Assembly (NCBI RefSeq): GCF_016026235.1
Contig: NZ_CP065613.1
DNA: 64,000 bases
Strand: one strand, 5' to 3'
Origin: Escherichia coli
GTDB lineage: Bacteria; Pseudomonadota; Gammaproteobacteria; Enterobacterales; Enterobacteriaceae
Positions 3,724-20,859 of this stretch are shown here, in pieces. The notes under the pieces are model-generated. The model was not told where the DNA came from and did no database searches. It was given only the letters and a program-made list of their open reading frames with translations. The stretch's first letter is position 1, and each line of letters begins with the position of its first letter. Both the position numbers and the translations under genes were made by a program.

Positions 3724-4817
3724 AAGAAACGCTCCATCTTACTGCTGTCAGTTCGTTTATTACTGTATCTGCGCGGATTGCCGGGCTTCATGGGAGTGGA
3801 AAGCACCCGTGCACTTTCCTGGTCCACAGGCAGAAAATGTCCGTTATAAAAACGCCGGTAAATCGTTCCCAGAGAACCGTTACGTTGTTTCGTGATATTG
3901 ATTTCTGCGATGCCCCTGGCCTGCGTATCCGGGTTGTACACTTCATCCCTGTAAAGCATCAGAATGATGTCTGCATCCGCCTCTATTTCTCCGGAATTTT
4001 TCAGGTCTGAGTTCATGGGACGTTTATTGGGTCTGGACTCCACACCGCGGGAGAGCTGGCTCAGCGCAATCAACGGAAAACCACCGGATTTTGCCAGGCC
4101 TTTAAGCCCCTTTGAGATTTCACCCACGGCAAGGTCATGACGCCCCGTGGTTCGGGTTTTTATCAGCCCGAGATAATCAACCACCACCAGCGCCGTTTCC
4201 GGATGTTTAATCAGATGGTGTTTCGTTGTTGCGCATATCTCATCAATGGTCAGGTTCGCCTGGTCCACCATCCAGATATTGCGCCCGGTCATCCGCCCCA
4301 CCCCTTGTGAGAAACGCGCCCAGTCTTCATCTTCAAAGTGAGCCACAGATTTCAGGCGTGATACTGGCATCCCTCCAGCCGCAGACACCATACGTTCACC
4401 AATCTGGATGTTCGCCATCTCCATGGTGAACAGAAGCACACCATGCCCCTGCTCAGTCACCTTGTCGATGATGTCCAGCGCAAGTTCGGTTTTCCCCATC
4501 GAAGGACGAGCCGCAATAAATACCAGGTCGCCGGGCTCCATGCCGCCTGTTTTTGCGTCCAGTTCATCAATACCGGTCATCAACGTCCTGGATTTCTCCA
4601 GTCCCTGATTCCGGCATTCAACACGCTCAACCACCTCCGGAAGCACATCATCAATATGTACCGACTGAATAACGCCCTTTTCCGTCGACAATGAGGCCAT
4701 CATGTTCTGTGCATCCTTAAGAGCATCTTCAGCTGCTTCACAGGTATGCGCATTGAGGTAGCCTGAGTTTAACGGACACTCCTTCCTGAAATAGAATGGC
4801 ATCAGAAGGAGCTAATA

Positions 4818-5120
4818 ATGAGCAGAAAAAACCAACGTTACTCTAAAGAGTTCAAAGCCGAAGCTGTCAGAACGGTTCTTGAAAATCAACTTTCGATCAG
4901 TGAAGGCGCTTCCCGATTATCCCTTCCTGAAGGCACTTTAGGACAATGGGTTACCGCCGCCAGAAAAGGGCTCGGTACTCCTGGTTCCCGCACGGTGGCT
5001 GAACTGGAATCTGAAATTCTGCAACTGCGTAAGGCGTTAAATGAAGCTCGCCTTGAGCGAGATATATTAAAAAAAGCAACAGCGTATTTTGCACAGGAGT
5101 CGCTGAAAAATACGCGTTAA
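4818..5120 (+). CDS. IS600 OrfA (HTH transposase N-terminal component)
   Basis: 100-aa ORF MSRKNQRYSKEFKAEAVRTV...; IS3-family orfA. Confidence 0.85.
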   Translation: MSRKNQRYSKEFKAEAVRTVLENQLSISEGASRLSLPEGTLGQWVTAARKGLGTPGSRTVAELESEILQLRKALNEARLERDILKKATAYFAQESLKNTR

Positions 5121-5155
5121 TCGAACAATGGCGACAACAATTTCCCATTGAAGCG

Positions 5156-5974
5156 ATGTGTCAGGTATTTGGTGTATCCAGGAGCGGTTATTACAACTGG
5201 GTACAGCATGAACCCTCAGACAGAAAACAAAGTGATGAGCGGCTAAAACTGGAGATTAAGGTGGCACATATCCGCACTCGCGAAACATATGGAACCCGGC
5301 GGCTCCAGACGGAGCTGGCAGAGAATGGCATCATCGTTGGTCGTGACCGACTGGCACGTCTTCGTAAGGAGCTAAGGCTACGCTGTAAGCAGAAACGCAA
5401 GTTCAGAGCGACTACGAACCCGAACCACAATCTGCCAGTTGCGCCAAATCTGCTGAACCAGACGTTCGCTCCTACAGCACCAAATCAGGTCTGGGTGGCG
5501 GACCTGACGTATGTTGCCACACAGGAGGGATGGTTGTACCTCGCTGGCATCAAAGATGTTTATACGTGCGAAATTGTCGGCTACGCCATGGGAGAGCGCA
5601 TGACAAAAGAGCTGACAGGTAAAGCCCTGTTTATGGCGCTCAGGAGCCAGCGCCCACCTGCCGGGCTAATCCACCACTCTGATCGAGGTTCACAGTACTG
5701 CGCATACGATTACCGGGTCATACAGGAGCAGTCTGGTCTGAAAACATCAATGTCGCGTAAAGGTAACTGTTACGACAACGCTCCGATGGAAAGCTTCTGG
5801 GGAACGCTGAAAAATGAGAGCCTGAGCCACTATCGTTTTAATAACCGGGATGAAGCCATCTCAGTAATACGGGAATACATTGAGATTTTCTACAATCGTC
5901 AGCGTCGTCACTCTCGTCTGGGGAATATCTCCCCGGCAGCCTTCAGGGAAAAATATCATCAGATGGCTGCTTAA
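5156..5974 (+). CDS. IS600 OrfB (DDE integrase-like catalytic component, expressed by -1 frameshift as OrfAB)
   Basis: 272-aa ORF with DDE-type motifs (ADLTYV..., HSDRGSQY..., NAPMESFWGTLK); -1 frame relative to orfA. Confidence 0.85.
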   Translation: MCQVFGVSRSGYYNWVQHEPSDRKQSDERLKLEIKVAHIRTRETYGTRRLQTELAENGIIVGRDRLARLRKELRLRCKQKRKFRATTNPNHNLPVAPNLLNQTFAPTAPNQVWVADLTYVATQEGWLYLAGIKDVYTCEIVGYAMGERMTKELTGKALFMALRSQRPPAGLIHHSDRGSQYCAYDYRVIQEQSGLKTSMSRKGNCYDNAPMESFWGTLKNESLSHYRFNNRDEAISVIREYIEIFYNRQRRHSRLGNISPAAFREKYHQMAA

Positions 5975-6374
5975 AAAAAGAACAAATGGTAGTGTCCGCT
6001 ATTGCCAGTACACCTCACATCGCGTAATTTCTGTAATGCCTCGTTCAGTGTTTTTTCTGCATCGCGCAGTGCGGCATTGCGCCGCAACGCTGCAACATAG
6101 TGCTCCAGTGAAGACTTCACCCAGGTTTTACGCCCGGTATCAGTAATCACCGGGGCAAGTTCTGGCATCTCATTGCACAACAGCACAGGATCAATCACGC
6201 CGGACACACGGGCCTGTCTGCAGATGCCTGTGTAGATATCCCGGTACGGTCGTACAGAAAAAACGTCCGCCGGTAGTGTGGCCAGAATATCCATCACTTC
6301 AGGATCTGCTCCGCGCAGAAAGAACGCGCCGATGACAGCGCCTTCAAGGTCATCGTTACGCCATACTGGAGTTG

Positions 6375-19476: not shown

Positions 19477-19779
19477 ATGAGCAGAAAAACCCAACGTTAC
19501 TCTAAAGAGTTCAAAGCCGAAGCTGTCAGAACGGTTCTTGAAAATCAACTTTCGATCAGTGAAGGCGCTTCCCGATTATCCCTTCCTGAAGGCACTTTAG
19601 GACAATGGGTTACCGCCGCCAGAAAAGGGCTCGGTACTCCTGGCTCCCGCACGGTGGCTGAACTGGAATCTGAAATTCTGCAACTGCGTAAGGCGTTAAA
19701 TGAAGCTCGCCTTGAGCGAGATATATTAAAAAAAGCAACAGCGTATTTTGCACAGGAGTCGCTGAAAAATACGCGTTAA
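19477..19779 (+). CDS. IS600 OrfA
   Basis: 100-aa ORF identical to copy 2. Confidence 0.85.
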   Translation: MSRKTQRYSKEFKAEAVRTVLENQLSISEGASRLSLPEGTLGQWVTAARKGLGTPGSRTVAELESEILQLRKALNEARLERDILKKATAYFAQESLKNTR

Positions 19780-19814
19780 TCGAACAATGGCGACAACAAT
19801 TTCCCATTGAAGCG

Positions 19815-20633
19815 ATGTGTCAGGTATTTGGTGTATCCAGGAGCGGTTATTACAACTGGGTACAGCATGAACCCTCAGACAGAAAACAAAGTGATGAGCG
19901 GCTAAAACTGGAGATTAAGGTGGCACATATCCGCACTCGCGAAACATATGGAACCCGGCGGCTCCAGACGGAGCTGGCAGAGAATGGCATCATCGTTGGT
20001 CGTGACCGACTGGCACGTCTTCGTAAGGAGCTAAGGCTACGCTGTAAGCAGAAACGCAAGTTCAGAGCGACTACGAACCCGAACCACAATCTGCCAGTTG
20101 CGCCAAATCTGCTGAACCAGACGTTCGCTCCTACAGCACCAAATCAGGTCTGGGTGGCGGACCTGACGTATGTTGCCACACAGGAGGGATGGTTGTACCT
20201 CGCTGGCATCAAAGATGTTTATACGTGCGAAATTGTCGGCTACGCCATGGGAGAGCGCATGACAAAAGAGCTGACAGGTAAAGCCCTGTTTATGGCGCTC
20301 AGGAGCCAGCGCCCACCTGCCGGGCTAATCCACCACTCTGATCGAGGTTCACAGTACTGCGCATACGATTACCGGGTCATACAGGAGCAGTTTGGTCTGA
20401 AAACATCAATGTCGCGTAAAGGTAACTGTTACGACAACGCTCCGATGGAAAGCTTCTGGGGAACGCTGAAAAATGAGAGCCTGAGCCACTATCGTTTTAA
20501 TAACCGGGATGAAGCCATCTCAGTAATACGGGAATACATTGAGATTTTCTACAATCGTCAGCGTCGTCACTCTCGTCTGGGGAATATCTCCCCGGCAGCC
20601 TTCAGGGAAAAATATCATCAGATGGCTGCTTAA
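19815..20633 (+). CDS. IS600 OrfB
   Basis: 272-aa ORF; one substitution (F for S in ...VIQEQFGLK...) relative to copies 1 and 2. Confidence 0.85.
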   Translation: MCQVFGVSRSGYYNWVQHEPSDRKQSDERLKLEIKVAHIRTRETYGTRRLQTELAENGIIVGRDRLARLRKELRLRCKQKRKFRATTNPNHNLPVAPNLLNQTFAPTAPNQVWVADLTYVATQEGWLYLAGIKDVYTCEIVGYAMGERMTKELTGKALFMALRSQRPPAGLIHHSDRGSQYCAYDYRVIQEQFGLKTSMSRKGNCYDNAPMESFWGTLKNESLSHYRFNNRDEAISVIREYIEIFYNRQRRHSRLGNISPAAFREKYHQMAA

Positions 20634-20859
20634 AAAAAGAACAAATGGTAGTGTCCGCTATTGCCAGTACACCTCAAAGTGCCCAGATGGTGTTCAATGT
20701 ATACGGAGCATGGATGACTGACAGCAATGCAGAACAGATCGCAATGCTGAATCAGAAGCTGGCAGATTATGTCCCAATGATGTCCCATGGTCACCAAAGT
20801 GACACAAGAGGCTTATTAAAATCAGTGAGTTAGCTTTTAATACCCGTCATGTTAACTGC

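Follow-up and report, generated by a model that had tools for sequence, protein, structure and literature searches.

Three independent IS600 insertions in a phiP27-like prophage at yecE in enteroinvasive Escherichia coli

When several copies of one insertion sequence lie close together within a single prophage, the question arises of whether each arrived by its own transposition event, and of what the insertions have done to the prophage that carries them. We consider this for a 64-kb stretch of an Escherichia coli genome (the window, meaning here the whole stretch of DNA analysed), which holds three full-length copies of IS600. Each is 1264 bp long and all are on the (+) strand, making them direct repeats: copy 1 lies at 4754–6017, copy 2 at 15821–17084 and copy 3 at 19413–20676, with 9803 bp between copies 1 and 2 and 2328 bp between copies 2 and 3. 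The ends of the element are the exact limits of similarity between the copies, with 0–1 nt of outward extension. Three 1264-bp repeats that are at least 99.8% identical cannot have arisen by chance. Every copy is bounded by its own 3-bp target duplication, namely CAT for copy 1 (4751–4753 and 6018–6020), GTG for copy 2 (15818–15820 and 17085–17087) and AAG for copy 3 (19410–19412 and 20677–20679). An earlier note on this DNA had described three copies in one orientation with these separate duplications; when the repeats were located and their flanks re-inspected, the ends and coordinates agreed and the flanking triplets matched at all 3 copies. The note had also mentioned a few substitutions, at OrfA residue 5 in copy 1 and at a Ser/Phe position of OrfB in copy 3, and both are among the four IS positions at which the copies vary (78, 169, 232 and 980). 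Position 78 is A solely in copy 1 and determines OrfA residue 5 (N vs T), position 169 carries a private, synonymous T in copy 2, and copy 3 alone is altered at positions 232 (C, synonymous) and 980 (T, giving OrfB S193F). The same note held that no recombination between copies has yet occurred. This stands for reciprocal exchange, which is excluded because the duplications of each copy match; it does not extend to gene conversion, with which matching duplications are compatible.

On their sequence, all three elements are IS600, an IS3-family member originally reported from Shigella sonnei. The sequence of copy 1 agrees with annotated IS600 on the pINV plasmids of enteroinvasive E. coli (EIEC) at 100% identity and with IS600 on Shigella pINV plasmids at 99.8–99.9%, and 246 plasmid records contain a match with a query coverage of at least 80%. 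The termini are of the TG..CA type (left TGAGGT..., right ...ACCTCA) and form imperfect inverted repeats, in which the first 6 nt match and additional matches occur over about 27 nt. Within the element, orfA spans IS positions 65–367 and the orfB frame, which is −1 relative to orfA, extends to position 1221, with an A7G slippery sequence at positions 316–323; in copy 1 this places orfA at 4818–5120, orfB at 5156–5974 and the A7 run at 5069–5075. The predicted OrfAB fusion, with its frameshift read from the sequence alone, would be 385 aa long, the size of the annotated 385-aa IS600 transposase. OrfB scores 334 bits against the NCBIfam model transpos_IS3 (cutoff 160), and Pfam rve domains are on record for the IS600 gene products. 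The putative DDE triad, assigned by motif and not by structure, comprises D116 (VWVADLTY), D176 (HHSDRG) and E212 (APMESFW), with IS3-type spacings of 60 and 36 residues. The window copies thus share with the reference element its length of 1264 bp, the orfA/orfB arrangement with a −1 frameshift, the TG..CA ends and the 3-bp duplications, and they differ from it by allelic substitutions only (OrfA N5T in copy 1, OrfB S193F in copy 3, and two synonymous changes).

IS elements are a classic source of misassembly, and a misplaced repeat, or copies collapsed or duplicated by the assembler, could in principle produce such an arrangement. Contigs that span the junctions in independent short-read assemblies nevertheless reproduce them at 99.7–100% identity: contig L019 covers the right junction of copy 1, contigs L014–L017 the left junction of copy 2, and contigs L004–L010 the right junction of copy 2 together with the left junction of copy 3. 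As these junctions recur in independent assemblies, and as each copy carries distinct SNPs, an assembly artefact was rejected, and we regard its probability as negligible. Segmental duplication was also considered and rejected.

All three copies are situated within one phiP27-like lambdoid prophage integrated at yecE. The prophage–chromosome junction is marked by the att core TTAACTGCGTG (20852–20862, + strand), an 11-bp sequence identical to the attL core of phiP27 and located at the 5′ end of yecE, beyond which the chromosomal genes yecE (DUF72), yecN, cmoA and cmoB follow in order. Genes for a tyrosine integrase and an excisionase lie beside this core, and the early region is collinear with that of phiP27, positions 1–17290 of which match window positions 1998–20862. 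With phiP27 and with yecE-integrating Stx phages such as Stx2_12E129_yecE, the prophage shares its integrase, its xis gene and the att core at yecE. Collinearity with this family covers the helicase, the DnaC-like loader, the repressor, the SPFH lipoprotein and Q, at 84–97% identity over aligned segments (93% in summary). In the early-right operon, the Q-type antiterminator gene (2274–3095, − strand) follows downstream of copy 1. The stretch between copies 1 and 2 contains the replication module, with the gene for a DnaC-like helicase loader (6375–7262, − strand), and the immunity region, with a LexA/S24-type phage repressor gene (11610–12341, + strand); the excisionase gene (DUF1233; 17961–18197, + strand) lies between copies 2 and 3.

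Unlike the phiP27 family, the window prophage carries no stx genes between Q (2274–3095) and the holin gene (372–587). In an Stx-converting phage, stxA and stxB would separate Q from the lysis genes; here the interval holds only a tRNA-Met, an IraM/PmrD-like gene and small ORFs. A single tRNA-Met takes the place of the ileZ-argO pair of the phiP27 family, some accessory modules differ, and the three IS600 interruptions are a further difference. The window's first ORF (375–692) had no match in an exact-protein look-up. The accessory genes of the prophage include a TumE-type toxin–antitoxin pair, a ParE-like gene, the SPFH lipoprotein gene and the IraM-like gene. Nor is this a complete inducible prophage with both att sites and intact integrase and replication genes, as int is truncated and the helicase gene is split; the distal att site falls outside the window, and the contig runs on via the lysis genes to the terminase.

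The three insertions differ in what they have done to the genes that received them. Copy 1 is inserted antisense in the gene for the phage DnaB-like helicase, leaving a C-terminal part (3720–4753, − strand; residues 121–463, with the DnaB_C ATPase domain) and an N-terminal part (6018–6378, − strand; residues 1–120) whose ORF continues into the right end of the IS (5971–6378). The predicted result is a replicative helicase whose N- and C-terminal domains are separated. Copy 2 lies close to the 3′ end of the gene for an SPFH/Band-7 lipoprotein (15019–15820, + strand; displaced 3′ end at 17088–17116), where the last 9 native residues are replaced by IS sequence and the product shortens from 276 to 269 aa; the predicted effect is an alteration of the last residues of this protein and nothing more. 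Copy 3 is inserted 176 bp short of the prophage end in the tyrosine integrase gene (18253–19412, + strand; displaced 3′ end at 20680–20833), which is cut after residue 387 of 437 (..MGHAS, then EVA*). The cut comes before residue 397 (..FNVY), the predicted catalytic Tyr, which was recognised from the conserved order of motifs (R..HxxR..H..Y) and not by structural alignment, so that copy 3 is predicted to deprive the integrase of its C-terminus including this residue. Because the helicase is split and the integrase C-terminus is lost, the prophage is predicted, from the positions of domains and motifs, to be fixed at its site, incapable of excision or replication.

In-silico removal of each IS together with one duplication yields intact ORFs of 463, 276 and 437 aa, and these exact restored proteins are present in public databases, the helicase in 64 contigs, the SPFH lipoprotein in 2 and the integrase in 74. 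Empty sites with a single triplet are seen in phiP27 and in EIEC RMDEC332. With sites, flanks and duplications that differ from copy to copy, with empty sites in relatives and with IS-less proteins on record, the three copies are independent insertions, as the earlier note had proposed.

The relatives also bear on the order in which the copies arrived. Over the stretches compared, the window is 100% identical to E. coli GCA_900449985.1, an EIEC lineage; among the RefSeq complete E. coli genomes searched, which do not include the window's own lineage, the best match is another EIEC lineage (O96:H19-like; 82% coverage, 96% identity), with IS600 at a different site. Two near-identical sisters, GCA_014155105.1 and GCA_031665325.1, have kept copies 1 and 2, and their int gene is intact, with a clean empty site 3. 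Since the sisters share copies 1 and 2 yet have an empty site 3, copy 3 was most likely inserted last, by parsimony and on a handful of SNPs. The same pattern might arise if an ancestor with three copies had lost copy 3 by precise excision, either spontaneous or IEE-mediated; in STEC O121:H19, IEE is documented to promote precise IS600 excision with restoration of a gene (PMC9397093). We consider this very unlikely for the sisters, as it requires an extra event per sister lineage and site 3 is empty in every outgroup examined, namely phiP27, RMDEC332 and CP026836.1, the last of which carries an IS1 elsewhere in its int gene and no other insertion there. The SNPs between the sister loci offer few informative sites, and window position 15008 alone is of use in polarising copy 3: there the sisters have the outgroup base and the window has the derived base.

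If copy 3 is the most recent insertion, it may still be asked whether it came from within the prophage. One could suppose a single founder IS600, with the other two copies as its short-distance daughters, so that their origins would not be independent; the presence of three copies inside 16 kb, in a single orientation and at least 99.8% identical, would fit such local hopping. Against this, a shared orientation of three copies has a chance probability of 0.25, and every copy has at least one private substitution, so direct parentage needs extra mutations. Furthermore, the copy 3 allele (C232 with T980) is 100% identical to an IS600 on plasmid NZ_CP065612.1 of E. coli FDAARGOS_945, a plasmid that may belong with the lineage of the window, as neighbouring accession numbers suggest. 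T980 is also present in a chromosomal IS600 of RMDEC332, an unrelated EIEC lineage; given its occurrence there and on the plasmid, the copy 3 allele is a circulating one and not a new mutation. As its allele is identical to that of a plasmid-borne IS600, copy 3 probably did not jump from copy 1 or copy 2, and for the same reason at least two donor alleles are likely to have been involved. We therefore judge local hopping unlikely.

Overall, we are highly confident in an account of stepwise IS600 insertion, from at least two donor alleles, into a resident prophage that is predicted to have been grounded as a result. Three separate copy-out-paste-in transpositions entered a phiP27-like, stx-negative yecE prophage resident in an EIEC lineage, each generating its own 3-bp target duplication, with copies 1 and 2, which are common to the sister strains, probably arriving first and copy 3 last. 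Of this account, the insertions, their independence and the damage to the genes are established; the sequence of events, the donor, the prophage's loss of mobility and any coming deletions are inferred. RecA-dependent recombination between the resulting direct repeats could delete 11.07, 3.59 or 14.66 kb. The reading that deletion could remove the replication and immunity region or the int-xis region is correct: genes for replication and immunity occupy the 9.8-kb stretch, and xis and int the 2.3-kb one. This genome has no deletion between copies, and no copy is a hybrid deletion product. Among the relatives fetched, a search for hybrid IS600 copies of this kind found none, and every full-length copy found had matching duplications.

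The clustering also raises the question of whether the prophage is an IS sink, as the earlier note had suggested it may be. Within the window, about 21 kb of prophage holds three IS600 copies and 43 kb of adjacent chromosome holds none. In related S. boydii-type and EIEC lineages, this prophage carries IS600 at four further positions, all with 3-bp duplications, bringing the distinct sites in this prophage type to at least 7 across lineages, 6 of them at 13.7–19.4 kb in the window. IS600 has proliferated in EIEC and Shigella; the EIEC ST270 reference chromosome has 23 copies (PMC7373316). Taking such published EIEC reference counts as a proxy for the genome-wide number in this strain, about 23 chromosomal copies would give an expectation of about 0.2 per 46-kb prophage. 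These figures could indicate a regional target preference of IS600 for the early or accessory region of the prophage, for example as silenced or structurally distinctive DNA, as opposed to mere tolerance of insertions. We find this unlikely. No convincing common target motif was seen among the 7 insertion sites beyond CAT/ATG triplets (3 of 7), local GC content at the sites ranges from 0.35 to 0.52, and in another lineage an IS1 occupies the same int gene. The region was moreover chosen for its cluster, a post hoc bias, and the accessory genes of a prophage are dispensable, so that insertions there survive. As relaxed selection in an IS-expanding lineage would also yield at least 7 sites, the prophage can be called a sink only in the ordinary sense, that of dispensable DNA in an IS-expanding genome. 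That the prophage is more than a passive dump, through IS600 targeting or through repeated selection of int and replication knock-outs, seems to us unlikely. Were the selection version true, IS knock-outs would ground a costly prophage while its accessory genes are kept.

The insertions are an ordinary outcome of the known IS expansion in Shigella-like (EIEC) E. coli, and nothing here is new in kind. McDonough and Butterton reportedly showed, in 1999, that stx can be amplified and deleted via flanking IS600 copies in S. dysenteriae 1. Close parallels are the defective Stx prophage of S. dysenteriae type 1, riddled with IS elements and with IS600 beside stx, and the IS600-bracketed tra region on the pINV of EIEC O96:H19. 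There, as in the window prophage, IS600 copies disable and bracket segments of dispensable mobile DNA, and their role as substrates for deletion or amplification has been proposed or demonstrated (PMC7819885, PMC7283534, PMC7373316). Unlike those parallels, the window prophage is toxin-free, has all its duplications intact and has not yet undergone deletion or amplification. Its significance beyond bookkeeping is small. The matched duplications and the polymorphic copy 3 could serve as lineage markers, and the predicted deletions of 3.6, 11.1 and 14.7 kb could be used to gauge rates of IS-mediated deletion. In short, the locus offers a clean and well-documented example of how stepwise IS600 accumulation disables a prophage, in an EIEC lineage whose genome is decaying in a Shigella-like manner.

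When all of the window was searched for repeats, one family came up, with three members that begin at 4754, 15821 and 19413, and direct comparison of these members bore out the earlier note's description of three same-orientation IS600 copies. Each is full length at 1264 bp and lies on the plus strand (copy 1, 4754-6017; copy 2, 15821-17084; copy 3, 19413-20676), with 9803 bp between copies 1 and 2 and 2328 bp between copies 2 and 3. Alignment among the copies ends precisely at the IS600 termini. On re-inspection, a matching 3-bp direct repeat borders each copy, a different one in each case (CAT for copy 1, GTG for copy 2 and AAG for copy 3), so none of them is a hybrid left by an inter-copy deletion. 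The copies vary at four positions: an A found solely in copy 1 at IS position 78 gives OrfA N5 in place of T5, a T at position 169 in copy 2 and a C at position 232 in copy 3 are synonymous, and a T at position 980 in copy 3 gives OrfB S193F. Both amino acid differences had been claimed previously, and the factual statements of the earlier note are all correct. Gene conversion has not made the copies uniform; some conversion between them is possible.

IS600 is a long-known IS3-family element that has expanded in Shigella and enteroinvasive E. coli (EIEC). Copy 1 matches at 100% elements that carry the annotation 'IS3-like element IS600 family transposase' on invasion plasmids of EIEC; its identity with IS600 on Shigella invasion plasmids is 99.8-99.9%. 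Typical IS3-family features are seen in the TG...CA ends and in an orfA of 100 aa with orfB behind it in frame -1. IS positions 316-323 hold a slippery A7G run, which would yield a predicted OrfAB fusion of 385 aa, the annotated transposase length. The IS3 transposase model scores 334 bits (cutoff 160), D116, D176 and E212 are present with IS3-type spacing, and the reading frames are intact in all three copies. Because the S193F allele carried by copy 3 occurs at other locations in the genomes of other strains, it is evidently capable of movement, alone or in trans.

The genes interrupted were assessed by deleting each IS together with one copy of its triplet. This restored a 463-aa DnaB-like helicase ORF for copy 1, a 276-aa SPFH/Band-7 lipoprotein ORF for copy 2 and a 437-aa tyrosine integrase ORF for copy 3. 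The restored proteins have residue-for-residue matches in a public protein collection (on 64, 2 and 74 contigs, respectively), which strongly and independently supports simple insertion with duplication of the target. Copy 1 breaks the helicase behind residue 120, at the boundary between the N-terminal and ATPase domains; copy 2 alters the SPFH protein only by replacing its last 9 residues; and copy 3 ends the native integrase sequence at residue 387 (..MGHAS), which is ten residues short of the predicted catalytic Tyr (..FNVY). We infer that the prophage would be capable of neither excision nor replication. Since copy 1 stands antisense within the early-right operon and Q is downstream of it, copy 1 may also be polar on late-gene activation.

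For INDEPENDENCE and the order of insertion, relatives have empty sites in which the triplet is present once. Sites 1 and 2 are empty, with a single triplet, in phage phiP27, as are sites 1 and 3 in RMDEC332, an EIEC strain of another lineage. Together with the matching triplets and restored ORFs, these empty sites support the claim that each copy inserted independently, without inter-copy deletion. Two sister assemblies, GCA_014155105.1 and GCA_031665325.1, match the window at 99.93-100% in the flanks and carry copies 1 and 2, with SNPs that agree as far as the compared loci extend, but their site 3 is cleanly empty and their 437-aa int is intact. Most parsimoniously, copy 3 would therefore be the latest gain. 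A minor alternative is that the sisters lost copy 3 by precise excision, a process promoted by IEE and documented for IS600 (PMC9397093), but such a loss requires more events, and the sole polarisable SNP (window 15008) speaks against it. Local hopping is not supported either. An IS600 on plasmid NZ_CP065612.1 of E. coli FDAARGOS_945 matches the copy 3 allele at 100%, the copy 1 allele is that of a copy on invasion plasmid (pINV) CP011417, and the common Shigella pINV allele differs from copy 2 by one synonymous change; no simple parent-daughter relation therefore links the three copies.

Across window 1998-20862, the host prophage is collinear with the half of phiP27, an Stx2e phage, that runs from int to Q, and likewise with yecE-integrating Stx phages. 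The 11-bp att core of phiP27, TTAACTGCGTG, is found at 20852-20862 and is directly followed by yecE, yecN, cmoA, cmoB and torZ. No stx genes were found between Q (2274-3095) and the holin gene; this interval contains small ORFs, an IraM/PmrD-like anti-adaptor gene (1344-1679) and a lone tRNA-Met (2055-2130), whereas phiP27 carries stx and ileZ-argO at the position of the latter two. Compared loci of contig UGFA01000005.1 (GCA_900449985.1, annotated E. coli), jointly spanning window 1-29425, are 100% identical to the window, and there the prophage runs on beyond window position 1, past the lysis genes and up to the terminase. The copy 2 junction is also found in EIEC strain 4608-58 (O143:H26, accession JTCO). 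These two sequence matches place the host in an enteroinvasive E. coli lineage. The prophage also has a ParE-like gene at about 14167-14385 and, in its accessory DNA between copy 1 and copy 2 (about 9300-10000), a paired TumE-family toxin and HVO_A0114-type DNA-binding protein, seen in gene calls of matching loci L003 and L018. In sister GCA_031665325.1 (locus L012, 14960-20810), yecE is broken at window 21245, which is 569 bp beyond the place where copy 3 has its right end, and next come an IS21-family element and phage tail genes; IS600 is not involved in this break, which reflects either a rearrangement of its own or a second prophage.

Further features lie beyond the prophage. Between flhB and cheZ (35797-38026), where K-12 is not known to have more than an intergenic region, a 502-aa dGTP-triphosphohydrolase paralogue matches the dGTPase model of PADLOC (E 1e-70) and, above cutoff, NCBIfam TIGR01353, and could represent an anti-phage dGTPase islet; an overlapping 250-aa ORF gave no family match. 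A 300-nt direct repeat of 72% identity (41234-41533 and 42935-43234) is not a mobile element. It lies within two adjacent minus-strand ORFs of 534 and 560 aa between cheR and cheW; judged by this position, they are probably tap and tar, which encode paralogous chemoreceptors. The cheA gene is broken into ORFs of 290 and 292 aa (45309-47095), and motA is interrupted by an element of the IS4 family that is about 1.3 kb long and ends in 21-bp inverted repeats (about 48234-49530). This element looks degraded, since of the 340 positions in the transposase model its ORF (48268-49035) covers no more than the first 203. Split cheA and disrupted motA would fit a non-motile phenotype, and non-motility is typical of EIEC and Shigella.

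The earlier note had also suggested that the prophage may be an IS sink. In other EIEC and S. boydii-type lineages, the same prophage type carries IS600 at four more sites (matching loci L002, L022, L023, L024 and L025), each with a 3-bp duplication and two in opposite orientation. All are empty in the window, at equivalent positions 14833-14835 (RMDEC332 and GCA_039702935.1), 17872-17874 (CP026836.1 and an S. boydii draft), 13734-13736 (CP026836.1) and 14022-14024 (CP026875.1); CP026836.1 has an IS1 inside int as well. With the window's three, this makes at least seven independent IS600 sites in this prophage type, and six of these fall between 13.7 and 19.4 kb. According to published counts, there are 23 chromosomal IS600 copies in the 4.9-Mb EIEC ST270 reference and 11 in the ST99 reference (PMC7373316 S1 Table). 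At the ST270 count, uniform insertion would place about 0.2 copies in a prophage of ~46 kb, so that three is an excess, albeit in a region picked for its cluster. No target motif or composition signal was found at the seven sites, and the accessory genes of a prophage can be dispensed with. An ordinary explanation suffices, namely insertions surviving in neutral DNA during the known IS expansion in EIEC (PMC7373316). A more novel reading, in which IS600 targets this region or selection favours a grounded prophage, appears quite improbable.

In short, the observation is confirmed and the earlier interpretation supported, in a genome already publicly available with annotation. It is also already known in kind: the Stx prophage of S. 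dysenteriae type 1 is an established example of a defective prophage full of IS (PMC7819885), the tra region of the EIEC O96:H19 pINV is an IS600-bracketed, deletion-prone segment (PMC7283534), and the prophage described here is the same kind of phenomenon.
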